DNA from: a virus
Lineage: Duplodnaviria; Caudoviricetes
IMG/VR virus record: IMGVR_UViG_3300033551_000003
Location: 815-64,814 of that record
Direction: 5' to 3' (one strand)
Length of the DNA stretch: 64,000 bases
Part shown: positions 1 to 45,414 of the stretch, piece after piece
Position numbering within the stretch: position 1 is the stretch's first letter
Layout of the letters: every line of letters starts with the position of its first letter
The notes under the pieces: generated by a model
What the model was told of the DNA's origin: nothing
The model's database searches: none
Seen by the model: only the letters and a program-made list of their open reading frames with translations
Program-made: the position numbers and the translations under genes

Positions 1-1991
1 TCTCTACGGGATTCCGGATCCCAGGTTGTAACTGCCTGTATTGCTGTAACTGGAACCTGACCCCAAACTCCACCCCCATCCTTAGCTCGGGGGTCCGTGA
101 AGACATTTAGATTAAATTTAACACTGTCCTTCTCGTCGTAGACACGATCCAACTGGGCATTTAGGCGCGCGTTGGCTTCATACTCTGGTGTGCCTGGCAT
201 CCAAGCGCCTCTTGCAGGTTTGGCTTGCCACAAACGTCTCGACTCATCCATTAATCGTGCTTCCTCCAACTCCAAATCTTTCAGTTTGGCCCGTAACTCT
301 CCTTCGGTTAACCCACCACCCGAGCTAGTCCACTGACCGCTATCGTCCCGGGGCTGGTCGGGATCATAACCGGCCTTCTCTACAGGCTCGTCCTCGTCGC
401 CCATCTCTTCGAGCAGGCGCTGTATCCTTAGCAACACCTCCAGGACCGGGTCGTCCTCCTCAACAGGCCCACCCCCGTTGTGGGCCTTCTTTATGGGTTG
501 CTTGCGTAGGTTGACCAAGGCATCAACACTCCGCTTCAGTAGCTTCTTGGCGTCTGCCTTCGTGACGGCCGCCACCACGCCTATGTTGTTAATCACCTCG
601 TCAATATACTGATTAGTGATATTCTCAGTACCACCCAGATTACCTGAGGCCTGGTCCACAATGGCAGCAATACCTTTTGAGATAGCATCCTTGACCTTCT
701 GGGACTTAGCAATGCTACTCAAGACGTTAACAACATCGTCAGTCCGGGACCAGTCCTTGTACTGGTTGGGTGCGCTACCCCCAGACACTCGTGGGACGCT
801 GCTCCCACTGCTAGCACCACCCCCACCCCCAGACTCCGACCACTGGCCGTCCTCGCCACGGGGTTGGTTGGGGTCGAAGCCTGCTTTGATAACCTGTATC
901 TGATTGCTGCTGTTAAATTTAGGCAGTGGGTTGGGCGTTGTGGGGATCTTAGCCCGCACAATGAATTCATGAAGGGTGTATTCCTTAAGCGTACCCTTCG
1001 CATCTATAGCTACAGTACGCTTGCGAGGGATGTACTTAACTGGTTCCAGGATTGTATTACGGGGTAGGATAATCTCGCTCTCCTCACTGGGCTCCACTTT
1101 ACCCGACACTGCCACCGAAGGGACAGAGTACTTGCCACCACGCGGTACCATAATCTTCAGCAGTATACCGTCCCTAACCTCGTCCGGGGCCTGCTTCATA
1201 ACTCCACCAGTAGCAAAATCCACCGCCACGTCCTTATCCAGTGACGCAGACATGTAGCTACGGTCGAGTATTTGCGCAGAGTTCTTAATATGATCCAGCA
1301 TATCCAAGTCAACACCCCGGAACAGCAGCATTGGCTTGTCAGTTGTTACGAACGACTTATCAATCGCCTTCACCATGCCGTCCTTACCTAAGGAACTGGA
1401 CACCCCGTACCTAAGGTAGTCGTTCACCGAGTCCGACCCTGCTATAGCATAGTCAGCTAGCTCCCCACGCTCTAGCGGGTCGAACCTAAGCATCTTGGAC
1501 CGGTACTCACTAGCCGCGTCCAGGAAGTCCCGGGCATTGGGTATCTCACGCAATAGAGCAATATCCCCGGGCTTAGGACTGACCTCTGGTAGCTCGATCC
1601 TGTTCTCTGGTAGGGAGACCCACACCTTGCGCGTTGGCTCCAGATAAGTCAGGTTCTCCAACTCGTCCTTAATGTCTAAATTGAGCTTGACCTGCTGGTT
1701 CCATTCTGCCAGCATACGCTTATGCTCAGGGTCGTTAATATCCGGGATGGCCTTCATACCGGCACTTAGTTCGTCTATACGAGCACGTATCTTGGGTTGG
1801 TCGGCAATAATCTGCCTGGCCCGGGCTAGTCCCTCGGGAGTCATGATCGTTGCGGCATCTATAGGTTTGCCAGGCTTATAGGAGCCCCCACCCCCAACGA
1901 CCCACTTACCGCCTTCATCACGTGGCTGCTCGGGATTGAAGCCTGCCTTATTGATCAACCCTTCAGGGAGCTTGAGAATCCCTACTGGCAT
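1..1991 (-). CDS. Multidomain (polyvalent-like) protein with a VIP2/Alt-type ADP-ribosyltransferase domain; 3' end runs off the window
   Basis: Manual translation from ATG at 1991 (MPVGILKLPEG...) stays open to the window edge. R-S-E ART motifs: LLFRGV, YMSASLD, EESEIILPRNT (~1050-1330). Three KAG[FY][ND]PxQPRxxxGxW motifs separate the domains. Absent from the ORF track because it is truncated. Confidence 0.8.
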   Translation of the reverse strand, partial: MPVGILKLPEGLINKAGFNPEQPRDEGGKWVVGGGGSYKPGKPIDAATIMTPEGLARARQIIADQPKIRARIDELSAGMKAIPDINDPEHKRMLAEWNQQVKLNLDIKDELENLTYLEPTRKVWVSLPENRIELPEVSPKPGDIALLREIPNARDFLDAASEYRSKMLRFDPLERGELADYAIAGSDSVNDYLRYGVSSSLGKDGMVKAIDKSFVTTDKPMLLFRGVDLDMLDHIKNSAQILDRSYMSASLDKDVAVDFATGGVMKQAPDEVRDGILLKIMVPRGGKYSVPSVAVSGKVEPSEESEIILPRNTILEPVKYIPRKRTVAIDAKGTLKEYTLHEFIVRAKIPTTPNPLPKFNSSNQIQVIKAGFDPNQPRGEDGQWSESGGGGGASSGSSVPRVSGGSAPNQYKDWSRTDDVVNVLSSIAKSQKVKDAISKGIAAIVDQASGNLGGTENITNQYIDEVINNIGVVAAVTKADAKKLLKRSVDALVNLRKQPIKKAHNGGGPVEEDDPVLEVLLRIQRLLEEMGDEDEPVEKAGYDPDQPRDDSGQWTSSGGGLTEGELRAKLKDLELEEARLMDESRRLWQAKPARGAWMPGTPEYEANARLNAQLDRVYDEKDSVKFNLNVFTDPRAKDGGGVWGQVPVTAIQAVTTWDPESRR

Positions 1992-2975: not shown

Positions 2976-3784
2976 CACACGCTCCACGATGTTGGATAGC
3001 CCCACCAGCGATAGCTTGGTGACCACTCGAAGCTGCGGTTGAGCAGCATGGCCCACCACGGCGTACGGAGGTTTAGGCCACCAGCCACCCAGATGGGCTG
3101 CGATCTGAAGTCATATGCGCAGTTGGTTATGCGAATATTGGCATAGGTGCCAGGGCTTCCATTGACACCTATGCAGGAGCCTTCGTTGCCGAAGAACTTG
3201 CATCTGTCTACCAAGACGTTCCTGATAGCCTGCTCGGGAAGATCACACTCCATGTCAATACCATCACCGGGAGGCGTTCCACCCGTATTGGAAAATACAC
3301 AATTCGAAACCAGTAAACCCTCGACCGCAATTGCGCTCAAGCCTTGACGACGGTTGCCATCGGAGATCACGCTATCGATCACCACGTTGGTTGCCTCTTG
3401 GACGTAGAGCCCGTCCGCGAAGCAGCGTGACACATGGGTTCCGAATACCTTGATTGTATGCGCCTTGCGAATATCGATGCCGTGTCCGAATCCACCAACG
3501 TCCCACTTTGTGGACGCCAGGTGCGTGTCGCGCTCTCCTATAATCCTGCCACCGATAATGCTGACGTTATCAACGTCCCAGAGCTTGAAGATACGATAGC
3601 CGAGTTCTGCAGTAGGCAGCGCCCTGACAGTGGCGTCCGTCAGGTCCAGGGTGATGCCCGACTTGAGGGTTATGCCACTGTTGGCGTTGTCATTGGTGAC
3701 GTTGACGTCATACGTCCCAGCTGGGACCTTGACAGTGTCGCCAACTCTGGCGGCGTCGATCATTGCTTGAATAGTCATGTTCAT
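2975..3784 (-). CDS. Right-handed parallel beta-helix (pectate lyase-like) protein, possible depolymerase
   Basis: IQAMIDAA..GDTVKVPAGTY start; repeated beta-helix rungs (DGLYV, GNRRQGLS, PGDGIDME). Confidence 0.8.
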   Translation of the reverse strand: MNMTIQAMIDAARVGDTVKVPAGTYDVNVTNDNANSGITLKSGITLDLTDATVRALPTAELGYRIFKLWDVDNVSIIGGRIIGERDTHLASTKWDVGGFGHGIDIRKAHTIKVFGTHVSRCFADGLYVQEATNVVIDSVISDGNRRQGLSAIAVEGLLVSNCVFSNTGGTPPGDGIDMECDLPEQAIRNVLVDRCKFFGNEGSCIGVNGSPGTYANIRITNCAYDFRSQPIWVAGGLNLRTPWWAMLLNRSFEWSPSYRWWGYPTSWSV

Positions 3785-4145
3785 TCACCCGTTGTGTTTG
3801 ATCGACGCCACCAGCGCTCTGCAAACTACCGCAGTTCTTCGATGGCGTAGTCAGCAGTATTCACCGTACACTTGTTGGCACCCAACCCGAGCCCCAACAA
3901 GCTAGCGATCAGTAGGATCTTAAGCATAAGTAGCCTCCTTTCACTTCGTCTTGTCGCAAATGATGCAGACACTGTAAGGTGTCGCATCAGAGACCGGCGT
4001 GTCCTTCCGTATAGCAGGATACACCGCCCGCCATTCGTGGCCGAGCAGCCAGCACCACCTAGCGCGATCGAAGAAGGCCCTACGCGGTGGTAGTTCCTTC
4101 ATATCACGCCTGTGACGCCTTATCCGCTCTTGCCACTTGTCCATG

Positions 4146-6734: not shown

Positions 6735-8531
6735 TCACTTTAGTGCCTTTCCATCTACAAAGACCTTGGGCCCCATCCCCACCATAACGAAGTCACTGGC
6801 CCTGGGCATGGGCCAGTAGGCCATCACAATAGCGTCAGCTAGGTTAGGGCTCCGGGTGCCATCAGGGGACTTATCAACAACTAGCTTCAGGCGCGAGCCT
6901 GTGCTAGCAGTGGCCTGGCACAGTTCCTTAATCACCTTATGTAGCAAAGGTAGGCGACTGTCGATGGAAAAGATGTCATCAGGGTCTGCTGATATCTTGG
7001 TTATTACCCCATTGGCATCAGGGATGCCAACTACAGCTTGGTAGGTTCGTAGTACACGCCCGCGCAAGGCCCACCAGGCTTGTGCCTTCAAGTTGGCGAA
7101 GAAATCCTTATTACGCACTGAGTCCCGATCATCAGCGTTAACCCGCTCCGCAGCATGTAGTACCTTGCCCCCAGCATTCCAGGGTACTACACGTAGCTTG
7201 TCAGGTAGGAGGTTATCATCCTTAAGGCGATTGACCTCACTCTTCACATTGGAGCCTATGGCGACAGCGTCATACTGAAGCTCAGGCACCTTCTGCGCTA
7301 CGCAATTAGCAATAGCCTTGCGCGCCGTCACACCAGGATCCCTTGCCACCCATTCATCAGCGAAGGTCAGTACCACACCGGAGCGAACCACCTGGGCGTT
7401 ACGATCACCATCCTCGCTGTCACCTATGTCTAGTCCCGAAATACGGTTCTGTCCAACATCAAAGCCAAGCTTAAGATGAGCATCAATGCAAGCATCCAAC
7501 CACTCCTTGGGTAGTATTGTACCGGTTAGCGAAGCAGCATAGTTACGCTCAATCTCCTGTGCGTAAATATGTGGCGTACCCTGGCTGAGGTGGTAGGCCT
7601 TCTTCTCCCTATGCCACTCCTCGCCAAACTCTGGGTGCTCATGGGAATCCATGACAAAGATACGGGTAATGCCCCTGGGTATCTGTGCGCCAGGGTACCA
7701 GTCCTGCCCTACCTCACGCTTCCTATGGAACAGATTACCCAGCCCATTCACCGAGGAGATGTCTATGGGCACCTTGGTGGTCTCGGACAGGGAGGCTTCA
7801 ATCAGTTCAGGGCGCTGATAGTGTGCGCTCTCGTCCTTGAAGAACAAACGTGTACGACCACCACGGCCGATCTTATCACCAACCTCACCCACAATAGAGG
7901 AACCAGTAGCCCGGTTATAGCACACGTACTGCTTGATGTCACTGTCGGTTAGGCCCTGTGGCTTAAATATCTCAGGCAGGCGATCAATCAATCCTCGTAT
8001 CTTGAAGAATATACTCTTAGGGTTGCCAATCTGATCCACCGAGTCCGCATCCTGGGATCCCCAACCTATAGCAACACCAGGGTAGAACAGCCATAGCCAG
8101 ACACTGATACAGACACACACCCATGTGGCCCCCATGGTGCGGCACTTCTCGACCAGGCCTGGCTGGTCCGTCTCCAGGCAGTCCTGCACGAAGTGTACAA
8201 GCTCCTCCTGGCGCTTAAAGAGTATAAACGGCATCCACACGGGCTTGGTGGTGCCAGCGTTACGGGGATCATGCGTATCGCACCAGTGGTTAATAAACGA
8301 CACACAGTCCTGCGCGTAGTAGGCCTTGGCCGCAGGTATCAGATGTGGATTAGTCTCCAGCGTAGCCAGCTGCCCCCTACGCCACAGCAACGCATCATCG
8401 TAGTTGGGAGGCCACTCATGGTTAGCCAGGGTACGGGGTGCACGTAAGGCCGAGTTCCGGGCCGAGCGCTGTAGCCGTTCAATACGGACAGCCGCAATCG
8501 CATCAGATACATCAACTGGCGCAGGCAGCAT
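6735..8531 (-). CDS. terL: Terminase large subunit
   Basis: Walker A-like EKCRTMGATW, Walker B FFKDESAH, ISS coupling motif, RNase H-fold GLDIG...D and SPNLADA. Confidence 0.92.
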   Translation of the reverse strand: MLPAPVDVSDAIAAVRIERLQRSARNSALRAPRTLANHEWPPNYDDALLWRRGQLATLETNPHLIPAAKAYYAQDCVSFINHWCDTHDPRNAGTTKPVWMPFILFKRQEELVHFVQDCLETDQPGLVEKCRTMGATWVCVCISVWLWLFYPGVAIGWGSQDADSVDQIGNPKSIFFKIRGLIDRLPEIFKPQGLTDSDIKQYVCYNRATGSSIVGEVGDKIGRGGRTRLFFKDESAHYQRPELIEASLSETTKVPIDISSVNGLGNLFHRKREVGQDWYPGAQIPRGITRIFVMDSHEHPEFGEEWHREKKAYHLSQGTPHIYAQEIERNYAASLTGTILPKEWLDACIDAHLKLGFDVGQNRISGLDIGDSEDGDRNAQVVRSGVVLTFADEWVARDPGVTARKAIANCVAQKVPELQYDAVAIGSNVKSEVNRLKDDNLLPDKLRVVPWNAGGKVLHAAERVNADDRDSVRNKDFFANLKAQAWWALRGRVLRTYQAVVGIPDANGVITKISADPDDIFSIDSRLPLLHKVIKELCQATASTGSRLKLVVDKSPDGTRSPNLADAIVMAYWPMPRASDFVMVGMGPKVFVDGKALK

Positions 8532-9278: not shown

Positions 9279-9572
9279 GTTGGTTCTGTTACTCTCAATT
9301 CTTCACTAGGATGGTGGCATATATAACGAATAATAACAGGGTCGTATAGCCACAATATCAGTTTAATTTAGACATAAAAACAATTAGACAAAAAATCAAA
9401 GAATGCTAAAATCACGACCAGCAATTTTGCCTAGAGCGCGGCACGCATCATCTAGTTCTTTCTCGGTGTATCCAAGCCGATTAAGCGCACGCATAGCAGT
9501 CTCATGATAGCTCTTGCTTTCCAGGGTTTCGATGTAGTCAATCAAGGCATCAGCCTGTTCACTAGTTAGCAT

Positions 9573-10185: not shown

Positions 10186-11070
10186 GAGTACGCTGGTGGT
10201 TATTGGGTTGCTAATTTGTAGTGGCACGCTAACTGGTCCTGGGTTACTATGCTTTAACGGCACGCTGACTTGTCTTGGATTTGGTTAATGGCATGTTGGC
10301 ACGCTTCCTTTCATTGGGTTTCCAATACGTGATGGCGCGCTAGACTTCTCTTGGATTACTGCTTGGAGTTGGCGCGCTGATTTGATCTGGGTTGCTCTTA
10401 CGCGATGGCACACTTGCCTTCTTTGGGTTGCTGTTGGCCGTTGGTACGCTAGTGAGTTCCGGGCTGCTTCTCCTCAACGACACACTACAAGCCTTTGGGT
10501 TATTGGGAGGGTATGGCACACTACGCGGTGTTGGGCTTCTCCTAGCTTTTGGCACACTGATAGTCCTCGGATTGCTAGCTTAGAGTTGGCACACTCGACG
10601 ATATTGGTTTCCTGCCTTTCAGTGGCACGCTGTACAACGTTGGGTTACTGGGCGGGTCTGGCACACTGGATTCTTGTGGATTGAACATCTTCGGCTTCGG
10701 CGCGCTGACTTGTCCTGGATTACTAGAGTTGCCTCTGACACACTGACCTGTCCCGGGTTACTTCTTCAAGAAGGCACGCTCCTTCATAGTGGGCTACTGT
10801 CACATACTGGCCCGCTAGCTTGGTCTGGGCTGCTTGAGGCGACTTGACACGCTCTTTTGTCCTGGGTTGCTGGTTACCAATAGCACGCTACGGCTCTTTG
10901 TACTCCATTCGATGCATTGGCGCGCTGTCCCTAATGGATTACTTGGCTTGTGTGGCTCACTAAACCTCCATGGGTTACTCGCGCTGGTGTGGCACACTAG
11001 TTGCTTTGGGTTTCCTGAGGTTTTGTGGCACGCTTACCCCTCAATGGGTTGCTTACACGGATTGGCTCGG
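10186..11070 (-). ncRNA. TIGR array 1a (~24 units of ~36 nt)
   Basis: On the minus strand AGYGYGCCA and AGYAACCCA repeats alternate, separated by ~9-nt variable spacers; GGCACGCT-type motif recurs at 10223, 10259, 10298, 10334, 10371... to 11027. Confidence 0.88.
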
Positions 11071-11074
11071 GCCG

Positions 11075-11320
11075 CTATGACCTCCGCTTCGTACCGAATA
11101 AGTAATCCACCCACGAGCGCCCGAGCTCCGGACTGACAGCATCGGCGGGGATCACTGCGACCGAATCGTGGTCTGGTGATACGACTACGACAGGGTGCTT
11201 AGGCACCGCGATTTGCAGCACGGTATCAGCCGGTAGCCTGACCTTCTTCATCTTGGTCTTGGTCTTGATCCGGGTCTTGACCTTGCGCTTGCTAGCAGTC
11301 TTACGCTTCTTCTTTGCCAT
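11075..11320 (-). CDS. Small very basic protein located between TIGR array segments
   Basis: MAKKKRKTASKRKVKTRIKTK...; AAGGAG RBS. Confidence 0.65.
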   Translation of the reverse strand: MAKKKRKTASKRKVKTRIKTKTKMKKVRLPADTVLQIAVPKHPVVVVSPDHDSVAVIPADAVSPELGRSWVDYLFGTKRRS

Positions 11321-11337
11321 GATCAGTCTCCTTTGGT

Positions 11338-12115
11338 TAGCACACTGTTAGTGTTTGGGTTACTCAGATTATCTGGCACACTGGCGATCAACGGGTTACT
11401 ATCATAGTGCGGCACACTGTTCCACGTTGGGCTTCTATTACGGCCTGGCACACTTTACCCCTTTGGGCTTATAAATCATACAGGGCTCGCTATCGAACAA
11501 GGGGTTTCTGTTATCCATCGGCTCGCTGGCTACGAGTGGAGGTCTCTCGAACCCTGGCACACTAGGCACTTTTGGGTTGCTTTCCAAAACCTGGCACACT
11601 AGTTCATTTTGGGTTTGCTCATGGCAGATGGCTCGCTGTCAACCTTAGGGTTGCTGGGAATTGACGGCACACTACTCGCATCCGGGCTACTTACGCTGCA
11701 TGGCACGCATCGGCGGCTTGGAGTTCTCACCGGCAGTTGGCACACTGTCACGTTATGGGTTCCTCGCAATCTGATGGCACACTACCGGGCCTTTGGGTTG
11801 CTTCATTGCCGTGGCACGCTATGAGGATTTGGGTTACTGCCTAATTTTGGCCCACTATAGTCCCACGGGATACTGGGAGGTCTTGGCACGCTGAACTTCC
11901 ATGGGCTACTACTAGGGGGTGGTGGCACGCTGGGCTTTCTCGGGTTACTAACCTTAATAGCACGCTTACGCATTTTGGTTTACTGAGTCCCTATAGCACG
12001 CTGCCGGTTCCTGGCTAGTTAGCTTTGTTACCTCGGCACGCTGATCTCTTCTGGATTTGCTGGCTGATCAAAGGCGCGCTCACCTGTTTTGGGTTACTGA
12101 GTTCTTGTGGCACTA
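11338..12115 (-). ncRNA. TIGR array 1b (~21 units)
   Basis: Same dual-repeat ~36-nt period (GGCACACT at 11375, 11411, 11447...). Confidence 0.88.
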
Positions 12116-12467
12116 TTCTCCACCTTCTCCTGGGTCCACCACCATCAATACGATGGCCGCCGCGAGCACCAGCACTAGATATGCCGCCAGGTCAGGCCCT
12201 GTCATCCGATTGGGTTGCTCGCAACTTGGCCGCTATGATCCTGGCCGCTGTGGACTCCGCCTGGTACTTGTTTATCAACGGCTGGGGGGCCTTGATCTTA
12301 CGCATTTGAACGGCTAGCCCCTCATCGGTAGCGGCCTCCTGCTCCAGGTAGGCCGCGAACCGATCCCGTTCCTCCGCCGTCAGCCGTAAACCCACAGCAG
12401 TTCTCCGATTATGTAGATGATCGTCACCACCAACACTAGCGCAACCAGGCCATAGGTCATAACACTG

Positions 12468-12902
12468 TCATTCACGACCGTACACCTTAAATACGCCATT
12501 GGGCCAGAGCACGTAGACGACCTTGCCCACCCTCTTAGCATAACGCACAGTCGCCCAAGTACCCGACCGAAGCTTTTCCTTAAAGCCAGCGGGGGCTGCT
12601 ATCAAGTAATCAACAGCATCCACTATGTCGTGGTTACGCTCCAAGTAGGGTTTTGGGGGCAGTACACGCTTGGCCTGCTTATAGGCACGGGCGCGGGGGT
12701 TATCAGGCGGGTGGATCACTGGCTTTAGACGTAAGGCCGTACAGATATCATGCGCCTCTGCGTCCGCCCCAATACAATCACCGTGATGTAATTCAGTCCC
12801 AACGGAATAGTCATTCAGGCACACACGCAGAGCGTCCAACTGCGCAGCAGTCATTCCGCGCTTGGTACCTGTAAAACCTATCCTATACACGGGGCGATCC
12901 AT
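12468..12902 (-). CDS. SLOG/YspA/DprA-like Rossmann-fold nucleotide-binding protein
   Basis: IGFTGT..., HHGDCIGADAEAH, ERNHDIVD, SGTWATVRYA; likely start MDRPVY at 12902. Confidence 0.75.
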   Translation of the reverse strand: MDRPVYRIGFTGTKRGMTAAQLDALRVCLNDYSVGTELHHGDCIGADAEAHDICTALRLKPVIHPPDNPRARAYKQAKRVLPPKPYLERNHDIVDAVDYLIAAPAGFKEKLRSGTWATVRYAKRVGKVVYVLWPNGVFKVYGRE

Positions 12903-13098
12903 CGGCCTGTCGCGTAATAGCAACATTGGCCCACATCGCAGTCGTACGATGGTTCCTAACCACCCAGGTCTTATCGGGGCCGTCCGGGAGCTCCTTCTCC
13001 AACACCTCACTAAATACCTTAGCAGCTTCCCGTACGCGCTGCATGCGCTCCACCTGCTCAGGGGTCGGTTGAAGATAATCGTAGGCTGACGTATGCAT
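12883..13098 (-). CDS. Acb2/Tad1-like helical-hairpin (cyclic nucleotide sponge family) protein
   Basis: YLQPTPEQVERMQRVREAAK.F...LPDGPDK......TTAMWANVAITR resembles the family consensus. Confidence 0.6.
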   Translation of the reverse strand: MHTSAYDYLQPTPEQVERMQRVREAAKVFSEVLEKELPDGPDKTWVVRNHRTTAMWANVAITRQADGSPRV

Positions 13099-13134
13099 GG
13101 TTTATCTCCCTTTTCCACGCCTATACATACAAAG

Positions 13135-13665
13135 CTAGGCCGCCGATGCAGCCTCCAGATCATTACCGCCAATCAATATTGTGGCCTTACGTCCAAGGTA
13201 ATCCAACAACACTCGTTCCCGATCCTTAGGACCAGTACCATCATAGATACCGACAAACCCTGTCAGGTGACCATTCACTACTCGCACAGTCTCACCCACG
13301 CGGAACCGGCTGTCCTCTCCATTGTACTTGGGAAGGTTAACAAAGCCATCCGACCCCTCTAGCAGGTGTAGCCGCTCAATCTCTGCATCGGGCATGATAG
13401 CGGGTAGGCCGCCCTGTAGTACAACAGTCAATACCCCAAAGGTGCCTAGCAGGAACCGCCAGCGCCCCTCGTTCTTCACAAATATGTAGCCCGGGAACAG
13501 GCTACTGACCTTCTTCTCGGCAACAGCCTTTGCCCGGGCTTTCTTACGCACAGCGATCCGTGGGTAGTAGAACGTACCCCCCTGATTAGCAATATTCTCG
13601 CAGGCCCAGGCCTCCCGCTGACTATGTGTCCGAACAACCAGCCAGCCACGCACCTCTAGAAGCAT
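13135..13665 (-). CDS. NusG/RfaH-family transcription antitermination factor
   Basis: WLVVRT, LFPGYIFV (NGN) and KOW FRVGETVRVVNGHLTGFVG. Confidence 0.88.
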   Translation of the reverse strand: MLLEVRGWLVVRTHSQREAWACENIANQGGTFYYPRIAVRKKARAKAVAEKKVSSLFPGYIFVKNEGRWRFLLGTFGVLTVVLQGGLPAIMPDAEIERLHLLEGSDGFVNLPKYNGEDSRFRVGETVRVVNGHLTGFVGIYDGTGPKDRERVLLDYLGRKATILIGGNDLEAASAA

Positions 13666-13746
13666 GCAGATGGTCCTCACCAGGGATAAAATCCCCAAAT
13701 CCTTAAACCTGGTGAGGATGGAAGTCAACGACCGATAGCAGAATCA

Positions 13747-14115
13747 TTACGTCAGGGTCAGAAACGGTCCCTGGATGATAAGTAAGTCACCATTGTGTAC
13801 AGCGATGGGCTTACCATAATCCCTAGTAATATCAAACCGTAGCAGAAGGCGCTTACCCAGCACCGTTACGTCTAATATCGCATAGGAGACGTCGTAAATC
13901 TCCTCTGTAGTGTTCTCCCACCTAACATCGGCTGCCAGGTCGGTAAGTGGTATAGACACAATCTCCCGGTCGAGCGTGTCGTCGTAGAGATAGAGCCTAG
14001 CCAAGTTCGGATCAGGCAAAGCCGGTGGCTCTAGTGCAGCAATAGCTGGACTAGCAGCAGCAACCCCTGCCGTCACTCCCCCCACCAGCACCGCACGCCG
14101 ATTAATCTCTACCAT
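13747..14115 (-). CDS. Hypothetical protein with twin-arginine (Tat)-like signal peptide
   Basis: INRRAVLVGGVTAGVAAASPAIA. Confidence 0.55.
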   Translation of the reverse strand: MVEINRRAVLVGGVTAGVAAASPAIAALEPPALPDPNLARLYLYDDTLDREIVSIPLTDLAADVRWENTTEEIYDVSYAILDVTVLGKRLLLRFDITRDYGKPIAVHNGDLLIIQGPFLTLT

Positions 14116-14280
14116 GGGCTTCCCTTTCTACCCGCTTGGGCGTATATCGCTCAACCTCATATCTCAGGGCTGCGGTAGCCTGCTGGTAATAGGCTAACTC
14201 CGTCCGCAGCCGCACAATCTCGGCCATCAGATCGTCATACAGCGCCGCCTTGGCGCAGCACTCGCGCTCTATGATATCAG

Positions 14281-14493
14281 TCATGGGCTAAAGTCCTTGG
14301 TCCATCCAACGTGTGCTGGCTCGATAGGCCCACATTTGCTGCACCGTATCTTAGGGAACCTACACATCCCCGACCAATTTTCTTTCCACGTCATTGTCTC
14401 GGGGAATTTTAGGAAGCGGGCACACTGGGGGCACAGCCGCTCGAATGCCGGGCCATCCTCTCCATAGCAAATAAGCGGCGCTTCGCGGCCCAT
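14281..14493 (-). CDS. Small Zn-ribbon protein
   Basis: CPQC and CSKC. Confidence 0.45.
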   Translation of the reverse strand: MGREAPLICYGEDGPAFERLCPQCARFLKFPETMTWKENWSGMCRFPKIRCSKCGPIEPAHVGWTKDFSP

Positions 14494-14496
14494 CGC

Positions 14497-14775
14497 TCAT
14501 GTCCCGCGAGTGCTGAGTTCTACGGCGGCTTCCCGTAGGAGCACTAAAAGTTCAGCGAGGTCCGGGGTGACGTGCGAGCCAATCTCGACGCACACCCGTT
14601 CGCCAGCAGCCCACTCACGTTCCGAGTAGTATCGGACGTGAGTGAACTCGCTGGTCCCGTCACGGTAGTTATGCGGCTGCTTCTCAATTACCCACGGCTC
14701 CGGGTACTTCGCAATCAACTCGCGGATACGGGCCGCTCTGGCTTCTGGGGTCATCTCACTAATCTCCATCGTCAT
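14497..14775 (-). CDS. Hypothetical protein
   Basis: ORF in tightly packed minus-strand run. Confidence 0.5.
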   Translation of the reverse strand: MTMEISEMTPEARAARIRELIAKYPEPWVIEKQPHNYRDGTSEFTHVRYYSEREWAAGERVCVEIGSHVTPDLAELLVLLREAAVELSTRGT

Positions 14776-15496
14776 CGCTCATGTCCTACGATTGCTCAAT
14801 CTCTCCACCAAATCAAACGGTGGGCCTTGCACTCCGTATCTCGCCCCACAGACATCGCAACTCTCGCACCAATCATGACCGCCGTCCTCATAGAACCAAA
14901 TGCCCACCGCTTTGCAGTTTCGGCATCGTGGCTTTCTTGAAAAGAAACCAAGTAGCTTTTTTATCAAACTCATCGCTCGCCTACCACGAGATAGTAGAGA
15001 CGCCGGAAGCTCGCAGCCGCTCTAGCCCTCGGATCAACGCCTGCATCTTGCGAGCGTGGCTATGGAGGTACTTGTCAGGGTTCTTGACCTGTACGTCGGG
15101 AAAGCTCCAGTCGATCGAGCGACGATCCGCCCGCATACGCTTGCGGAAGGTGGAGTCCTTACCGATGGTTATTAAACCCTTAAACGGTCCTGAGCGCATC
15201 ACACCTTTGCCGTACTGTTGATAAAAAACAAGGGCTGGCTCCCCCAATCCCAAGTAATGTCAGCCCCCGCTATTACTGATGTGCTGTAGTGACAAGACCA
15301 GGCTACAATCGGGCCATCGGCTAGTGGCATCCCGTAGATGATCACGGCCTGCTTCGTCACCACCACAGTCTCCTCCGACTCATTGACCCACCGTACCCAG
15401 GGCTTTTTGAGGCTAGCAATCGGTAGCTCAGCAATTATACGATCACCACTCCATAACACGAGGTCGGCGTTTACAACGTAAAGCGACTCGAAGGTA

Positions 15497-16588
15497 TCAG
15501 GTGTACTTGCGTCGTACAGGTTCAAATTGATGCTCGATGTCCGCCCACGCTTTGACAACGACTTGGCGGATCTGTTCCGCGCGCTTGGCGTACTCGGCAT
15601 TGGGGAGGCCTTCCATTTCCTGGATGAACTTAACCACAGCGCTATCAGGCCTAGCATCACCGCCATCTCCCTTACGTTTTAGCTTTTCACCAGCACGCTC
15701 CGCCTTGCTACGCTTAGCAATACCGATGCGGTCACCCAAACCTTGCTCTACCAGGAACTCTACGGACGCCTGGATATCGTCAATGCCGTAGCCGAACCTA
15801 ACCGGGAACATGCACTTGCGAAAGGGCACGCTGACCTTATTTTTCCGACAGTGGGCAAGCACCCGAATACCGGTGGCGCGCTTCTCCCCACGGATGGTCT
15901 GCGTCAGCGTCTTTATGTGCGACAACCACACAATATGCGTGGCGTAGAAGTCCAGGGACTTGCCCCCGGAGCGGCGCTGCTTCTCACCGATGACGTAGCC
16001 TATCTTGTCCCGCACCTGGGACACGATGATAAGGCACAGGTTACCTCGCTTAAAGTCACCAATCATCTGCTCGAATAGCTGCCCCAATATCTTTTGCTTC
16101 TCCAACGCGTAGGAGCCCTCCCCCGGGTCCCGGGCCAGCGCCGCCTTGGAGGTCAGCGCGTCCAGGGAGTCAATTATGTAGAGGCCTTCGGCATCGTTAG
16201 CGGCATGCCACTTACAAACCTTGCGTAGGTCTATAAAGACATCCTCGATGGTACGCCAATGCGTGTCAATGCCCTCCGGACCAAAGTCCACCCGATCCTC
16301 TGGCAGGCCCAGCCGTCCTGCGTAGGGAATGTCAAAGGCGGACTCGGCCTCCCGGTAGTAGATCCGTCCCTTGGGATAGGCCCGGGCAAAGTTAGCACAG
16401 GCCTCTATAGCCACCAGGGTCTTGCCAGTGGACTTATCACCGACGACGTTAGCTACCCGTTGCAGCACCCAACCCCCACCGAGTATACAATCTAGCAATG
16501 TACACCCGGTGGGGATAAACTGCTTGGGCTTACGTTCATCCGGGAAGTAATCACCCCCCACCCGGAGCGGTATGCGGCGCGCAACCAT
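15497..16588 (-). CDS. recA: RecA/UvsX-like recombinase
   Basis: IPTGCTLLDCILGGG, Walker A GDKSTGKT, YIIDSLDAL, SQVRDKIG, SGGKSLDFYA, KNKV. Confidence 0.92.
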   Translation of the reverse strand: MVARRIPLRVGGDYFPDERKPKQFIPTGCTLLDCILGGGWVLQRVANVVGDKSTGKTLVAIEACANFARAYPKGRIYYREAESAFDIPYAGRLGLPEDRVDFGPEGIDTHWRTIEDVFIDLRKVCKWHAANDAEGLYIIDSLDALTSKAALARDPGEGSYALEKQKILGQLFEQMIGDFKRGNLCLIIVSQVRDKIGYVIGEKQRRSGGKSLDFYATHIVWLSHIKTLTQTIRGEKRATGIRVLAHCRKNKVSVPFRKCMFPVRFGYGIDDIQASVEFLVEQGLGDRIGIAKRSKAERAGEKLKRKGDGGDARPDSAVVKFIQEMEGLPNAEYAKRAEQIRQVVVKAWADIEHQFEPVRRKYT

Positions 16589-19629: not shown

Positions 19630-22223
19630 TTCCAGGTATCCGATGAGAAGGTTCCGAACTCTTTCATATCCAGCCAGTTATCACCGATGCTCATTTCAGC
19701 GGTAATGGGTACGTTCACCCAACGAAACGGCACGCGTATCATAGCACCGATGATCTTTTCCGCTACATCGTCCACACGCTTCAACGGTACACTAGTGAAC
19801 GTGAGATCGTCGTGTATGTTAATCTCTGGCTGGAGATCCCAGTCCCCCACCTCGCTTAACCTAGACATACCGTCTAGGACTATTTCCGCAGCTGTACCCT
19901 GAACGGGCGTGTTTATTTGCTGGTTAGGCGAGAGTGGCCCCCGGCGACGGCGGCCTGTAAGACACTCCACGTAGTTATGTTCCTGATAGAAGCCCATAAG
20001 GCTTTCTTGCCAGTCCTTGACGCCCGAGAAGACCCTCCAAAACTCCTCGTATTCAGGACGCAGGTCCTCCACGGGTATCTGGAGGTACTCGGACGCCGAC
20101 TCTAGCCGCGCCCCGAAGAACAGTGGGAAGGTCCACTGGTTCTTGATATCGGTGCGGAAGTCCTTCATTACCTTCTTATCGTAGAAGTTCTTCTTACCCC
20201 CGACCCGTGCTGGGTAGGCCCGTGATATACGCTGCGCCCACTCCATATGGACATCGTACTTTTCCCACAGCGCCTTGCAGAACGCTTTGTCCTTGGAGAA
20301 CATCGCAATGACGCGGGCCTCTATCTGGCCGTAGTCAAACGACAACAGCACGCAGCCCGGGGGCGCTATGATCTGCTTACGAACCTCCTTGGCCTCATCG
20401 TCACGCTTGGGGAAGTTCTGAAGGTTTGGTCCTTCGCTAGACAACCTGCCTGTTTCCGCAAAAATCGTATTAAAGATCGTATGAAGCTTCCCATCCTCAA
20501 AGACGACTGAGAACTCGTTGTCCACGTCCAACGGATCAATGTAAGTAGCCTTCTGCTTATTAGTCTCGCGCAGACTAATAAGTAGTGACGCCAACGGATG
20601 GTCTATCTTGTCCAATATCTTCTTGTCAGCCGAATACTTTGCCGTCTTGGAATACTTATCTACCACCCGACACTCGGGGCGGTTAAGCATGTCCCTAAAT
20701 ATGTACATCACATCGGGATTTGAGAACGGCTTGAAGGTATAGCCCCGATTAGCCTTAAATTGACGGATGATTGGTAGCGAGTAGACCCTAGCAATAGTGT
20801 CGCTGTAGCGCGTCTGGTACTTAGTACTTAGTCGTTGATTCTCAACGCCGTCGACCATAACCCCCTTAATCTGACTGAGCACTACGGTGGGAACGCGCCG
20901 CTGCTGTAGTCGGTTAGCCTCCACCAGACCCTGCTGCTGTATCTCGGCCTCCTGCTCCAGACCGAGCAGGCAATGGAACTTCGCATCACCCCCGTTGTAG
21001 CGCAGGACTACGTCCAACGTGGTCTGGGCCAGCCATTTGGTGTCAATCATACTGATCTTTTTAAGATTGAAGCCAAAGTACTGCTGTACCAGGAACTCCA
21101 GGGAGAACGGTCCGGGCTTCTGCTTACCACGCCGCTCGTCTAGGATACAGGCCTGTCCCGCCGTATCCATCCACCGAGCAGCCCGCAGCAAGGACGGATC
21201 ATCAAAGTACACGCCTGTCCACTCCAACTCGAAGGCCAGGTTATGTACCCACAAGCGTCCCTTAGCACGCCGTAAAAAATTTGTGAACCGATCGCGTACA
21301 GTATCCTTCTCCGCCTTGGTCCATTCGGCCTCAGGGTGGTCGATGGGGAAGGCAACCCCCTTCGTACCCGTAGCGACGGCCACTGTTAGCAAGCGTGCGC
21401 TCTTATCATAGGGACGTAGCCGATCAGTCTCGTAGTCCACCCCAACATCTGGCTGCTCAGCCGCCCACGCCAACGCTTCAGTAATTTGGTCAATGCCCTC
21501 CTGACCGAACGTCGTGATACAGTCTATACCCTTGAAGACATCCTTGATGTCGTAGGGTTCGGGCTTGGGTAGACCTTGCGCTACCTCCGCGAAGGCCCGC
21601 TTCAGATCAAACCCGAACAACCGCTCCACCTCGTAGTTACCACGCATCTGCTCGTATAGCAGATAGGCCGGGTGTAGTATCGGGTAGTACCAGCAGGCGT
21701 GCGTCCCAATCCGGACGGGCATCCGCCGCCCTCGCCATAGAGTTATACCCGTAAAGCCGCTCACCCAACGCAGGGCCACGTCCCCCAAGCCGAAGATAGC
21801 CTGGGGCCTAGACTGCTCTATATCACGGATGACGGAGGGGCGGCAGGCCTCGATCTCAATAGGCGCGGGCGTACGATTATCGGGTGGGCGAGTACGGACC
21901 GTGTTATTGAACCGCACCTTGTTCTTAAACTCCCGGGGAATGCGCGCCCGCAATAGCTGCCCACTCTTACCGATGAGTTGTACACCTGCGTCATCCTCCT
22001 CCTCGCCAGGAGCCTCTGCGATGATATACACCAATGGCTTGGTGGCCCCAGTGGGGGCCATATCCGGATGACGGTTGCCAGTGACGTGCGCCAAGGGGCA
22101 AGCCTTACACTCCAGGCGATGGACCTCCCGTATGTCCATGCCTCCAAACTTAGCGCCCTTACGCCGATCGGGCAGGTCACCAAACAACGACATCAGGGAA
22201 CGTCCTTCCCATCTATATCCCAC
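19626..22223 (-). CDS. polA: Family A DNA polymerase with N-terminal uracil-DNA-glycosylase-like domain (SPO1-type)
   Basis: UDG: IAEAPGEEED..G..LIGKSGQLL, HPAYLL; exonuclease VDYET; polymerase TGRLSSEGPNLQN, DYGQIEAR, NTPVQGTAA, IHDDL. Confidence 0.92.
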   Translation of the reverse strand: MGYRWEGRSLMSLFGDLPDRRKGAKFGGMDIREVHRLECKACPLAHVTGNRHPDMAPTGATKPLVYIIAEAPGEEEDDAGVQLIGKSGQLLRARIPREFKNKVRFNNTVRTRPPDNRTPAPIEIEACRPSVIRDIEQSRPQAIFGLGDVALRWVSGFTGITLWRGRRMPVRIGTHACWYYPILHPAYLLYEQMRGNYEVERLFGFDLKRAFAEVAQGLPKPEPYDIKDVFKGIDCITTFGQEGIDQITEALAWAAEQPDVGVDYETDRLRPYDKSARLLTVAVATGTKGVAFPIDHPEAEWTKAEKDTVRDRFTNFLRRAKGRLWVHNLAFELEWTGVYFDDPSLLRAARWMDTAGQACILDERRGKQKPGPFSLEFLVQQYFGFNLKKISMIDTKWLAQTTLDVVLRYNGGDAKFHCLLGLEQEAEIQQQGLVEANRLQQRRVPTVVLSQIKGVMVDGVENQRLSTKYQTRYSDTIARVYSLPIIRQFKANRGYTFKPFSNPDVMYIFRDMLNRPECRVVDKYSKTAKYSADKKILDKIDHPLASLLISLRETNKQKATYIDPLDVDNEFSVVFEDGKLHTIFNTIFAETGRLSSEGPNLQNFPKRDDEAKEVRKQIIAPPGCVLLSFDYGQIEARVIAMFSKDKAFCKALWEKYDVHMEWAQRISRAYPARVGGKKNFYDKKVMKDFRTDIKNQWTFPLFFGARLESASEYLQIPVEDLRPEYEEFWRVFSGVKDWQESLMGFYQEHNYVECLTGRRRRGPLSPNQQINTPVQGTAAEIVLDGMSRLSEVGDWDLQPEINIHDDLTFTSVPLKRVDDVAEKIIGAMIRVPFRWVNVPITAEMSIGDNWLDMKEFGTFSSDTWK

Positions 22224-37703: not shown

Positions 37704-38025
37704 ATGGCACGCTTTCGAGCAAGGGGTTACTATTCTGATAAGGCACGCTTCACCGTTTTAGGATTCCTGTAACGTCGTGGCACGCTTTCGAGAAGGGGGT
37801 TACTAGACCGTTGAGGCACGCTTTCCCGTTTTGGGTTACTAGCAATCTCATGACACACTCGATTCCTGTGGATTTGTTTTGGTTTTGTGGCTCGCTATCC
37901 CGTTGTTGGGTTACTGACTGGTACCGGCGCGCTTCCTTTCGATGGTGTACTATTCCTGAACGGCACGCTGACGGACCTCGGTTTTGCTAACGAATGCTGA
38001 CACGCTGGTGGCTTCTGGGTTTCTA
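37704..38025 (-). ncRNA. TIGR array 2 (~9 units)
   Basis: GGCACGCT/GGGTTACT motifs alternating with ~36-37 nt period (37706, 37742, 37779, 37816...). Confidence 0.85.
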
Positions 38026-38449
38026 CATCGAATCATGGCGTGTACCTTCATTCTCCGGGATTATCATGTAGTCGTCACCATTCACCTCCCCCGCAAACGC
38101 TCCGGGCTCCATGCTAAACAACCGCATCAACTCGGTCGCCGCATCACCCTTGCAGTATACGCAGTCATCGGTGGCGAACACCCTTAGCCGTGCCGCCAAC
38201 AGGTCGCGGGCCGCCCACCAGGACAGTCCCGTGACCCGCAGACTCTCAGAGGCTGGATTACCGATGTACACCAGGTAGGTCATGACACCCCAGCGGGCTT
38301 CTCCACGAGCTCTATGCACTTAGCACGCACCATCGGGCCGTGTCCGGCCTCCACTGCGACAACCGCGCGCCGACAACCAGCCTCTGTCTCAAACGAAAAG
38401 CTCGCATCTAACTGACCAGTGGCTACCCAAAGTACAAGCATAACCCATT

Positions 38450-42121: not shown

Positions 42122-42135
42122 CCTCGCCCCAAGAA

Positions 42136-42201
42136 GCGAAACCGGGGTACGCCCCGGTCTGCCGGTAATGATCCTAGTCCGGCACTGATGAGCACGGATC
42201 A
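42136..42201 (+). ncRNA. Type II hammerhead ribozyme HH2
   Basis: GAAA, GUC, CUGAUGA; UGAUCC/GGAUCA pseudoknot. Confidence 0.9.
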
Positions 42202-42216
42202 ATTAGGAGAATACCA

Positions 42217-42414
42217 ATGAAAGTCGTTCTATTTAACGCAACAAAGACGTTGATGACTGAACTTCATATACCAGTCAACAGAAAGGCTGAGATAATTGTC
42301 TATGATGGAGCAGTATTTGTGCTCGCTGAGACTCCGGCAGAGATTAAGGAAATCTGCTACGTCCAAGAGTCCAACACTGTATTCGTAGACCCTTATGAGC
42401 AGCCTGTACATTGA
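42217..42414 (+). CDS. Hypothetical early protein
   Basis: RBS after HH2. Confidence 0.7.
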   Translation: MKVVLFNATKTLMTELHIPVNRKAEIIVYDGAVFVLAETPAEIKEICYVQESNTVFVDPYEQPVH

Positions 42415-42480
42415 GCGAAACCGGGGTAAAACCCGGTCTGCCGGTAATGATCCTAGTCCGGCACTGATGAGCACGGATCA
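42415..42480 (+). ncRNA. Type II hammerhead ribozyme HH3
   Basis: Near-identical to HH2. Confidence 0.9.
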
Positions 42481-42495
42481 ATTAGGAGAATTAAA

Positions 42496-42753
42496 ATGAC
42501 TTATTATCCAAGATTGAGTGTTACCACACCAATTAGTCTTGAGTACCTCAACAACCACGTACCCCAAAAGGTCGTGAAGGAGGTCCTCAAAAAGTTCGGA
42601 ATAAGCGATCAGGTGATAAGCCTGGTCGACTGGAACAAATCGCGATTCCCCGGAGTCGCGTTTGAGCAGGCCTGCCCACGCTTGAAGAACGTGTGGGACT
42701 GGCCGACCTATGACACACCATTTATGAGCAGCCTGAAGCGAAACCGGGTTTAA
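42496..42753 (+). CDS. Hypothetical early protein
   Basis: RBS after HH3; stop in the stem III hairpin of HH4. Confidence 0.7.
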   Translation: MTYYPRLSVTTPISLEYLNNHVPQKVVKEVLKKFGISDQVISLVDWNKSRFPGVAFEQACPRLKNVWDWPTYDTPFMSSLKRNRV

Positions 42754-42802
42754 CCCGGTCGCCAGAGAAACTGATCCCACCCTGGCCTGATGAGCAGGGA
42801 TC
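42738..42802 (+). ncRNA. Type II hammerhead ribozyme HH4
   Basis: GAAA/GUC/CUGAUGA; GAUCCC/GGGAUC pseudoknot. Confidence 0.88.
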
Positions 42803-42821
42803 GTTTTAGGAGAAGAAAACC

Positions 42822-42965
42822 ATGACTACGAAGGAAAAGGTTGTTACCGCGTCCACCGCTCTGGGCGGATTCCTGGCCTACATCATCGTGGCGACCACCA
42901 TCAATCAGGTCATCGCGAGTGTGGTCAACGGAGCCGTCCAGAAGTACGTGTTCAAGACGAGCTAA
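42822..42965 (+). CDS. Small membrane protein (47 aa)
   Basis: MTTKEKVVTASTALGGFLAYIIVATT...; RBS after HH4; below the ORF-track cutoff. Confidence 0.6.
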   Translation: MTTKEKVVTASTALGGFLAYIIVATTINQVIASVVNGAVQKYVFKTS

Positions 42966-42986
42966 CAACGGGGCCAGGAGGCCCCC

Positions 42987-43051
42987 GGCCACAATGATCC
43001 ACCTCTACGCGGTGTGGCTAGAAACGGTTCAAGGGAACCGGCTAACGGATC
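42987..43051 (+). ncRNA. HDV-like ribozyme 1
   Basis: P1 GGCCAC/GUGGCU with G.U at position 1, P2 GAUCC/GGAUC, P3 ACC/GGU, L3 UCUACGC, P4 CGGUUC/GAACCG, J4/2 GCUAA. Confidence 0.8.
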
Positions 43052-43068
43052 AATTTAGGAGAAGTAAA

Positions 43069-43341
43069 ATGTGCAATACACACTTAACGCAGTTTAAGCT
43101 GCGTTGCACCCGAGGGGATGTTGATATTTTTGACGGCCCCGATGGAGTGTACTGGCAGAGTATCATCTACCGAGAGGAAGACGGGTACTTCTGCGAGCCG
43201 TGCAACGGCCCCTTCAAAACGGCGGCCGAAGCACTAATGCATGCCTACCCCATCTTGGAGCATACCAGATGGCTGTTGGCAAACGATGTTTTCGAATTCA
43301 AAGCCTACAATGAAGTGGGCACAACCAAAATGGGGGAATAA
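43069..43341 (+). CDS. Hypothetical early protein
   Basis: AGGAG RBS after the HDV-like ribozyme; start MCNTHL. Confidence 0.65.
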   Translation: MCNTHLTQFKLRCTRGDVDIFDGPDGVYWQSIIYREEDGYFCEPCNGPFKTAAEALMHAYPILEHTRWLLANDVFEFKAYNEVGTTKMGE

Positions 43342-43348
43342 ACCCCCT

Positions 43349-43413
43349 GGCAGCAACGATCCACCTCTACGTGGTGTGGCTAGAAACGGTTCAAGGGAAC
43401 CGGCTAACGGATC
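43349..43413 (+). ncRNA. HDV-like ribozyme 2
   Basis: Near-identical copy; P1 5' strand GGCAGC has one mismatch. Confidence 0.7.
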
Positions 43414-43430
43414 AATTTAGGAGAAACCAG

Positions 43431-43583
43431 ATGACTAAGAATAGTCGTGAGACCAAGCCGCAGAAGCGGGAGGATCTCAAACTGGAAAGACCAGATTACA
43501 CGCTTTCGGTGAAGGAAGAGCAAAAAAGCCCAACCGAGATATGGATGAGGCTTACATTCAAACCAAAGCGAAACCCGCAGTAA
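43431..43583 (+). CDS. Small hypothetical protein
   Basis: RBS after ribozyme; stop within HH5 stem III. Confidence 0.6.
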   Translation: MTKNSRETKPQKREDLKLERPDYTLSVKEEQKSPTEIWMRLTFKPKRNPQ

Positions 43584-43632
43584 GCGGGTCTGCCGGTAAA
43601 GACCCTAGTCCGGCACTGATGAGCAAGGGGTC
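43568..43632 (+). ncRNA. Type II hammerhead ribozyme HH5
   Basis: Stem III CCCGC/GCGGG covaries; CUGAUGA. Confidence 0.9.
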
Positions 43633-43647
43633 AATTAGGAGAAACCA

Positions 43648-43911
43648 ATGCCTACAGAAATCGAAGTTGAGTTCGACTGTGACAGCGAACTGGTGACCAG
43701 AGCCAAGGCTGTCGTTGGAGCCTTCGGAGGTGTGGTTTTGGACGTATTCCACGTTACCGCTGATAATGAGATCGTTGACGATCAGCCAGCGGATGATGGG
43801 TGGACTTTTATGTCCTTTAACATTTCCGACGACCAGGCCCATAACGCCGCCGTAGCTTTGAGCGCTGCCGGGTACGACGTGGTCGTCCACGTGTACCCAG
43901 CTGAGCACTAA
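43648..43911 (+). CDS. Small acidic alpha/beta protein
   Basis: RBS after HH5. Confidence 0.7.
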   Translation: MPTEIEVEFDCDSELVTRAKAVVGAFGGVVLDVFHVTADNEIVDDQPADDGWTFMSFNISDDQAHNAAVALSAAGYDVVVHVYPAEH

Positions 43912-43912
43912 A

Positions 43913-43972
43913 AGTCGAAACCGGGAACCAACCCGGTCGCCTGGTTAGAACCAGGCCTGATGAGACTTAACC
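43913..43972 (+). ncRNA. Type II hammerhead ribozyme HH6
   Basis: GUC-GAAA...GUC-GCCUGG/CCAGGC-CUGAUGA-GAC. Confidence 0.9.
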
Positions 43973-43992
43973 CAAATTTAGGAGAATGAAAC

Positions 43993-44241: not shown

Positions 44242-44247
44242 AAAATC

Positions 44248-44316
44248 GTCGAAACCGGGATAAAACCCGGTCTGCCGGTGAGAGACCCTATTCCGGCACT
44301 GATGAGACACGGGTCT
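44248..44316 (+). ncRNA. Type II hammerhead ribozyme HH7
   Basis: Full core; AGACCC/GGGUCU pseudoknot. Confidence 0.9.
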
Positions 44317-44330
44317 TTTAGGAGAATACC

Positions 44331-44582: not shown

Positions 44583-44584
44583 AA

Positions 44585-44646: not shown

Positions 44647-44664
44647 ATTTAGGAGAACACAAAC

Positions 44665-45315: not shown

Positions 45316-45325
45316 AGCCCCAAAT

Positions 45326-45391: not shown

Positions 45392-45414
45392 TAACCTCCA
45401 CTTAGGAGAGAACT

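Follow-up and report, generated by a model that had tools for sequence, protein, structure and literature searches.

First described in 2025, TIGR (tandem interspaced guide RNA)-Tas systems still pose questions as to natural targets, expression timing, and array dynamics. In the dual-repeat TIGR-TasA systems, represented by FpTasA of Flavonifractor plautii (Faure et al. 2025, PMC12045711), an array is described as two alternating 9-nt repeats, termed edge and loop, which are separated by spacers of approximately 9 nt to give a 36-nt unit. [quoted passage not shown] According to the same source, arrays comprise most often 5 to 15 units, are typically followed by a rho-independent terminator, and were searched for within a radius of 5 kb around tas; the radius given in a second TIGR survey is up to 10 kb. 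Here, we analyzed a 64,000-nt stretch of DNA, referred to as the window, from a soil phage (Duplodnaviria; Caudoviricetes). It corresponds to positions 815 to 64,814 of IMG/VR record IMGVR_UViG_3300033551_000003 and covers nearly all of this 64,814-bp linear viral contig. Between positions 10186 and 12116, its minus strand carries a dual-repeat TIGR array that is genuine and consists of two blocks. It lies far from the contig's single tas gene and is referred to below as the distal array. The phage system is of a known kind (dual-repeat TIGR-TasA), and its genomic arrangement is unusual.

Throughout this region, the motifs AGYAACCCA and AGYGTGCCA alternate with a spacing of 18 nt. A chain parse of these motifs resolves two blocks, listed here in the direction of transcription together with the ORF between them:

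11338-12116, minus strand: distal TIGR array block 1, 21 guide units (21 loop and 22 edge repeats)
11075-11320, minus strand: ORF81, an open reading frame (ORF) of 81 aa with a lysine-rich N terminus and its own Shine-Dalgarno sequence, located between blocks 1 and 2
10186-11071, minus strand: distal TIGR array block 2, 24 guide units (24 loop and 25 edge repeats)

Each of the 45 guide units (21 + 24) is organized as edge, spacer A, loop, and spacer B, with spacers of around 9 nt. Both spacers measure 9 nt in 50 of the 83 parsed units and range from 8 to 13 nt in the remainder. The distal unit is most frequently 36 nt long (25/45), with an overall range of 35 to 40 nt. Block 1 starts with the 5'-truncated edge repeat ATAGTGCCA and ends with the 3'-degenerate AGTGTGCTA, and the corresponding sequences in block 2 are CCCGAGCCA and the degenerate AGCGTACTC. 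AGYGTGCCA was assigned as the edge repeat and the A-rich AGYAACCCA as the loop repeat, because these truncated or degenerate array-end repeats match the published TIGR description. Edge and loop repeats alike begin with AG and end with CCA, and therefore follow the covarying box D/box C rule; box D is AG in this phage, whereas UG has been described for TasR arrays. No spacer occurs twice among the 90 of the distal array, and none is found in the other arrays of the contig. The preliminary description of this DNA, which had reported two repeats on the minus strand in blocks of about 24 and 21 units, is borne out by the computational parse with exactly 24 and 21 units and with coordinates exact to 1 nt. 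ORF81 has no relatives outside its own cluster and no Pfam or PHROG match.

The distal array is not a product of chance, since both controls are free of matches. The three-motif pattern has 10 matches in the window, five of which lie within the distal array, compared to none in 100 shuffles. Moreover, the generic box pattern (AG-N4-CC three times, N10 spacing, at most one mismatch) has 42 matches in the two distal blocks and none on the two strands of the contig read backwards.

The same repeat pair forms four further arrays on the contig, two of which adjoin the tasA gene (listed with them):

37705-38042, minus strand: 9-unit array at the head of the minus arm
48251-48521, plus strand: 7-unit array, followed by a hammerhead type II-like element (48517-48592)
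54734-55750, plus strand: tasA (338 aa), with a Nop-domain fold, the only Tas gene of the contig
55759-56067, plus strand: 8-unit array, beginning 9 nt past the tasA stop codon and followed by a hammerhead type II-like element
56135-56771, plus strand: 17-unit array, followed by a hammerhead type II-like element with an intact CUGAUGA core

Counting the distal blocks separately gives six arrays, each of which has the same orientation as the genes of its arm. The contig carries 86 guides in total, 45 of which are distal. Within the plus arm, a whole guide (spacers TTAGGAATA and AACTTCAGT) is common to the 48-kb array (48468-48503, plus strand) and the 56.1-kb array (56280-56315, plus strand), and the spacer CAACAGAAA occurs twice in the latter (56453-56461 and 56709-56717). 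These repetitions indicate that units have been copied between and within plus-arm arrays.

The product of tasA matches solved Tas structures at the sequence level (TasH, E value of 1.2e-8; TasR, E value of 2.9e-8; phmmer). When its AlphaFold model (pLDDT of 78.9) was queried with Foldseek, the first 10 matches listed were TasH or TasR chains (E values of 1.5e-9 to 6.4e-8), and the IS621 recombinase came after these chains among the matches listed. In the model, residues 1 to 128 form three long helices with disordered linkers and lack any HNH or RuvC fold, and the protein has no Pfam match at an E value of ≤0.01, hence no nuclease match. A Nop fold free of nuclease, as predicted here, identifies the protein as a TasA, the nuclease-free type of Tas. 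The best match in both fold and sequence is SpTasH of Salicola phage CGphi29 (solved structures 9w03, 9w04, and 21kl), which has the Nop fold and the Tyr-x6-His motif in common with TasA. However, SpTasH has an N-terminal HNH nuclease where TasA has helices only. The C-terminal Y309-x6-H316 of TasA aligns to SpTasH Y289/H296, which are reported to be catalytic for pre-tigRNA (precursor TIGR guide RNA) processing (PMC13421893), and Y309 and H318 are invariant in all 20 TasA homologues compared. Processing by such Tyr/His residues is reported to need no metal ions (PMC13421893; preprint 10.64898/2026.09.09.750476). Judging from this alignment, TasA retains the predicted C-terminal Tyr/His processing loop of the dual-repeat Tas proteins.

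Six-frame searches of the whole contig (CheckV completeness of 63%), carried out using the TasA protein and a profile of 20 sequences as queries, returned a single tas place. This agrees with the single TasA of the preliminary description, which had also placed the array about 43 kb from tasA in the opposite arm and without a Tas gene nearby. The distance amounts to 42.6 kb, on the other strand, and none of eight ORFs scanned between 6.7 and 13.7 kb matches the Tas, Nop, or IS110 families. Likewise, its estimate of about 85 guides is close to the 86 counted, the distal and tasA-adjacent arrays do use the same repeat pair, and the array does lie in the gene run upstream of the terminase genes, with TerL downstream of both blocks.

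Compared to the FpTasA-type systems (PMC12045711), the locus is alike in its alternating edge and loop repeats, box D/box C ends, 9-nt tandem spacers, 36-nt unit, truncated end repeats, and the presence of a nuclease-free Nop protein in the same genome. However, it differs in that the distal array is separated from tas by 42.6 kb, belongs to the opposite strand and transcription arm, has no terminator, is interrupted by an ORF, and sits between translated ORFs. Its blocks of 21 and 24 units are also well above the published range for most arrays. The closest cultured relative of TasA is ORF034 of Ralstonia phage phiRSL1 (34.8% identity), which is annotated as "transposase". ORF034 is accompanied downstream by an array of approximately 1.3 kb with the AG..CC repeat type of this phage. 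In the complete 231-kb genome of phiRSL1, 34 of 36 pattern matches fall in one array directly after the gene, and the other two are single, control-level matches; there is no distal array. The array occupies the unannotated gap of approximately 1.4 kb after ORF034 (14258-15578) and comprises about 37 units with degenerate AG..CC repeats.

This comparison was extended to 10 comparators, namely, nine other TIGR phage contigs of this repeat type and the complete phiRSL1 genome. The nine contigs have only TasA in common with this phage. In all 10 comparators, the bulk of the array adjoins tas, and none of them has a large intergenic distal array. Three comparators (G001, G002, and G007) contain small sets of about two to five units at 14 to 48 kb from tas, all of which are inside long ORFs of non-tas genes:

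G001, 3774-3835, same strand as the frame: TIGR-type units in an open frame of 453 codons, stop to stop
G002, 48847-48926, same strand as the frame: TIGR-type units in an open frame of 423 codons, stop to stop
G007, 20807-20977, same strand as the frame: TIGR-type units in an open frame of 641 codons, stop to stop

Array size alone is not exceptional, because a complete 62-kb phage contig with terminal repeats (G004) carries about 93 units (187 repeat motifs) beside its tasA (12776-16180, minus strand). A scan of viral contigs with the single TasA protein confirmed no close relative of the phage. TerL relatives reach at most 54% identity, and none of 80 such loci (1.02 Mb) carries this array type.

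The integrity of the distal array is comparable to that of the other arrays. The AG..CC boxes are intact in 72 of 88 distal repeats and in 63 of 78 repeats of the four remaining arrays (Fisher p = 1.0), so decay is no stronger in the distal array. The edge variant AGTGTGCCA is present in 12 of 45 distal edges and in none of 32 plus-arm edges. Together with the lack of spacers in common, this skew points to separate array histories and argues against a recent copy.

Strain variation was assessed using L169, a 1,936-nt metagenome contig that is a strain variant of ORF81 and block 2 (98.06% identity over 1,133 nt). All nine repeat substitutions fall on positions 3, 5, 6, or 9 of the 9-nt repeats and none on positions 1, 2, 4, 7, or 8. 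Under a uniform spread, the chance of this pattern equals (4/9)^9, or approximately 7e-4. The spacers carry 8 substitutions in 445 nt, compared to 9 in 196 nt at the variable repeat positions, and ORF81 carries 2 in 246 nt, both of which read as synonymous. In addition, L169 has one complete 37-nt unit that is absent from this phage, while the off-length units and degenerate repeats are unchanged. Four of its changes recur in contigs of one soil run. Based on these alignments, the pattern is the one expected of an array under selection at protein-binding positions, in which whole units are gained or lost. Spacer-specific hypermutation, a candidate explanation for an apparent clustering of variant letters in spacers in one soil run, was not borne out by the substitution counts of L169 in spacers (8/445 nt) and repeats (9/196 nt). 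Next to the array, the ORF right after block 2 is swapped for another sequence in L169 (positions 1132-1530, versus 10222-10007 of the window), and the identity falls to 92.9% beyond it. This alignment indicates mosaicism at the downstream border of the distal array.

Guide supply in trans to the TasA encoded at 54.7 kb is the most economical reading of the distal array and is likely, given that the box positions are common to all arrays, TasA keeps its Tyr/His motif, and Tas proteins and arrays work in published assays when supplied separately. The latter is reported for pArray (Fig. 3 legend) and for separate plasmids in human cells (PMC12045711). Overall, we consider it probable that the two distal blocks are functional arrays that provide 45 guides in trans to the one detectable TasA for blocking or repression of targets. 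In this scheme, the blocks would be transcribed within the leftward run from the replication genes to the packaging genes, while TasA would be expressed from the opposite arm. The preliminary description had also suggested that these guides may be expressed at another infection stage than those of the early-arm arrays. TasA would bind each edge-spacer A-loop-spacer B-edge unit, and its Tyr/His loop would cut inside the edge repeats to release tigRNAs of approximately 36 nt. Guide-loaded TasA dimers would then bind double-stranded DNA, in which spacers A and B would each pair with one of the two strands. Since TasA lacks a nuclease, the outcome at the target would be blocking or repression rather than cutting. 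TasA has been reported as an RNA-guided transcription repressor (bioRxiv preprint 10.64898/2026.09.09.750476).

Guide arrays located away from the effector gene are familiar from CRISPR biology, in which orphan or isolated arrays are used in trans by a distant cas locus with the same repeat type. As an analogy, the two cases have this separation and the common repeat type in common. However, the RNA architecture and protein family differ, adaptation genes are absent, and both elements reside on a phage genome.

Several observations weigh against functional guide supply in trans. Units deviating from 36 nt (35 or 37 to 40 nt) make up 20 of the 45 distal units, compared to 12 of 41 elsewhere, and a fixed 36-nt geometry is said to be important for tigRNA processing. 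Neither distal block ends in a terminator-like site, no sigma-70-like promoter was found on the array strand near the blocks, and they lack the hammerhead-like end seen in the plus-arm arrays of this phage. The contig is linear and 63% complete (CheckV), so a second tas gene or more arrays may exist. Finally, targets were searched as spacer A, 0 to 2 nt, and the reverse complement of spacer B, a geometry derived from the reported 8-nt 3' overhangs and the "C-5 rule". The 86 guides have no self-target in the 64.8-kb contig at ≤1 mismatch. Two matches have two mismatches (one of them inside an array) and 12 have three, compared to 0 and 16.0, respectively, for shuffled A/B pairings; three other target geometries gave the same, control-level outcome. 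Across 166 other viral loci (2.02 Mb), no exact target was found, and a single one-mismatch target compares to 0.4 in the controls. For a search space of 596 Gb, approximately 50 chance matches per 18-mer are estimated, too many for 18-nt targets to be sought usefully in collections of this size.

The two arms of the contig differ in how their arrays end. On the minus arm, each of the three arrays leads into the following ORF's Shine-Dalgarno sequence and start codon, which for the distal blocks lie within approximately 10 to 25 nt. The last degenerate edge repeat of block 2 is about 10 nt from the Shine-Dalgarno sequence and start of the following ORF, and the 38-kb array likewise reads directly into a Shine-Dalgarno sequence and ATG. 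On the plus arm, the 48-kb, 55.8-kb, and 56.1-kb arrays are each followed by an element that aligns with the genome's own hammerhead type II copies, having GTCGAAACCGG..CCGGTC and the overall layout in common with them:

48517-48592, plus strand: hammerhead type II-like element after the 48-kb array, core CCGAUGA
56062-56140, plus strand: hammerhead type II-like element after the 55.8-kb array, core AUGAUUA
56750-56828, plus strand: hammerhead type II-like element after the 56.1-kb array, core CUGAUGA

Rfam gives no call for the elements after the 55.8-kb and 56.1-kb arrays (E value of ≤10) or for the element after the 48-kb array (E value of ≤1). They are termed hammerhead-like on the basis of their alignment to copies of this genome that Rfam does score. 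These elements may take the place of the published TIGR terminator. The Rfam gathering score is attained by seven hammerhead type II ribozymes. Every one of them lies on the plus strand within the plus arm (42134-52075) and none on the minus arm, with the following examples:

44584-44648, plus strand: hammerhead type II ribozyme
46573-46641, plus strand: hammerhead type II ribozyme
47133-47200, plus strand: hammerhead type II ribozyme
49129-49194, plus strand: hammerhead type II ribozyme
50619-50685, plus strand: hammerhead type II ribozyme
52010-52075, plus strand: hammerhead type II ribozyme

A narrower Rfam scan adds one copy at 49471-49539 (37.4 bits, with a cutoff of 37) and three below the threshold. 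Between 9000 and 13000, there is no Rfam match at an E value of ≤1.

The distal array shares its orientation with a tight run of genes extending from replication to packaging. The ORFs of the minus strand, listed leftward from approximately 38 kb, are arranged around the blocks as follows:

between the 38-kb array and the NusG-like gene, minus strand: replication genes (DnaB-like helicase, second helicase, thymidylate synthase, DNA polymerase, SSB-like, and UvsX-like)
13135-13728, minus strand: NusG-like gene with an NGN domain (PF02357, E value of 1.3e-12; phrog_6386, "transcription antiterminator"), 1 kb upstream of block 1
between the NusG-like gene and block 1, minus strand: four small overlapping ORFs
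after block 2 and before the AT-rich gap, minus strand: three small ORFs
9279-9395, minus strand: AT-rich intergenic gap between the array-bearing run and the terminase run
6735-8531, minus strand: large terminase TerL (phrog_2, E value of 1.7e-13), downstream of the array in the transcription direction

Alternative explanations for the distal array differ in which protein uses it and in whether its guides matter. It could serve a second Tas encoded in the missing part of the genome instead of the 54.7-kb TasA, which we regard as unlikely. The linear, 63% complete contig leaves room for such a gene, and the genome probably continues, given that no portal or capsid gene turned up among 37 ORFs scanned. 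The preference of distal edges for AGTGTGCCA (12/45), which is absent from the 32 plus-arm edges, is in line with a separate partner as well. However, the box positions and overall consensus equal those of the tasA-adjacent arrays, the T/C difference sits at a position that is also variable between strains, and a single tas locus was found in all 10 other TIGR phage contigs searched and in phiRSL1 (tblastn, phage collection). A very improbable alternative is that an array was translocated or duplicated and is now decaying as a relic that no longer yields usable guides. Its distance from tas, the lack of a terminal element, the 20 of 45 units off the 36-nt length, and degenerate loop repeats such as TGGAGTACA and TTCAATCCA would fit a relic, but the boxes are as intact as those of the tasA-adjacent arrays and substitutions between strains spare the box positions. 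Moreover, the off-length units and degenerate repeats persist unchanged in L169, and the absence of spacers in common with other arrays shows that it is not a recent copy. That the repeats are coding instead of an RNA array is next to impossible. The 36-nt period does equal 12 codons, the motifs translate as Ser-Asn-Pro and Ser-Val-Pro, and the sense ORFs within the array, which reach 71 aa, read accordingly. Nevertheless, no frame stays open; over 1.9 kb, the longest sense ORF has 71 aa, and the frame is shifted by 20 of the 45 units.

The array ends bear on a further possibility, in which the array would act mainly as RNA punctuation in cis and the guides would be secondary. TasA would cut at least 45 edge repeats, free the ORF81 message, and uncouple the cistrons. 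All three minus-arm arrays read straight into a Shine-Dalgarno sequence and start codon without a terminator or ribozyme, and ORF81 is bracketed by two array blocks. At least seven hammerhead type II ribozymes lie between plus-arm genes, so this phage appears to make a habit of cutting its transcripts between genes. However, 45 unique spacer pairs far exceed what punctuation would need. Spacers also vary between strains much like neutral sequence (8 substitutions in 445 nt), and we consider punctuation as the main role quite unlikely. Guide supply and punctuation could also be combined in a split guide programme, a fairly unlikely scenario in our view. Here, plus-arm arrays would end in the hammerhead manner and minus-arm arrays would be cut by TasA. 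The distal array would then provide differently timed guides as well as TasA-dependent punctuation that frees the ORF81 message and separates the upstream genes from the packaging genes, with the NusG-like protein carrying RNA polymerase through approximately 1.7 kb of untranslated repeats. We infer that carrying RNA polymerase through the untranslated array could be a role for the NusG-like protein, whose gene is otherwise part of the context only.

Returning to guide supply in trans, the arrangement has consequences for how TIGR repertoires are counted. No mention of orphan or tas-distal TIGR arrays was found in the literature searched, including the texts of the two surveys; supplements and the TIGRSafari resource announced in the preprint may list such arrays. 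A radius of 5 to 10 kb around tas would capture 32 of the 86 guides of this phage and miss both the distal array (45 units) and the 38-kb array (9 units). Searching beside tas alone therefore overlooks more than half of the guides. If TasA does load distal guides in trans, repertoires should be counted and targets sought genome-wide. In addition, the locus offers a natural gain or loss of one unit between strains with box positions spared by substitutions, two types of array end within one genome (hammerhead-like versus reading straight into an ORF), and a gene, ORF81, bracketed by arrays.

Additional features were observed along the minus arm. The NusG-like protein has no tblastn match (E value of ≤1e-5) in the nine other TIGR phage contigs, and this absence rules it out as a conserved TIGR partner. 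The E. coli-type boxA motif has no match at ≤2 mismatches, compared to 3.09 expected. Within the AT-rich gap, a 16-nt tandem repeat in two copies is located at 9368-9399, and the stretch (9279-9395) is a possible promoter or regulator site. At the far end of the minus arm, a 663-aa ORF (3-1991, minus strand), cut by the window end, matches ADP-ribosyltransferase families (PF03496, E value of 3.8e-5) and phrog_802, "Alt-like RNA polymerase ADP-ribosyltransferase" (E value of 3e-5).

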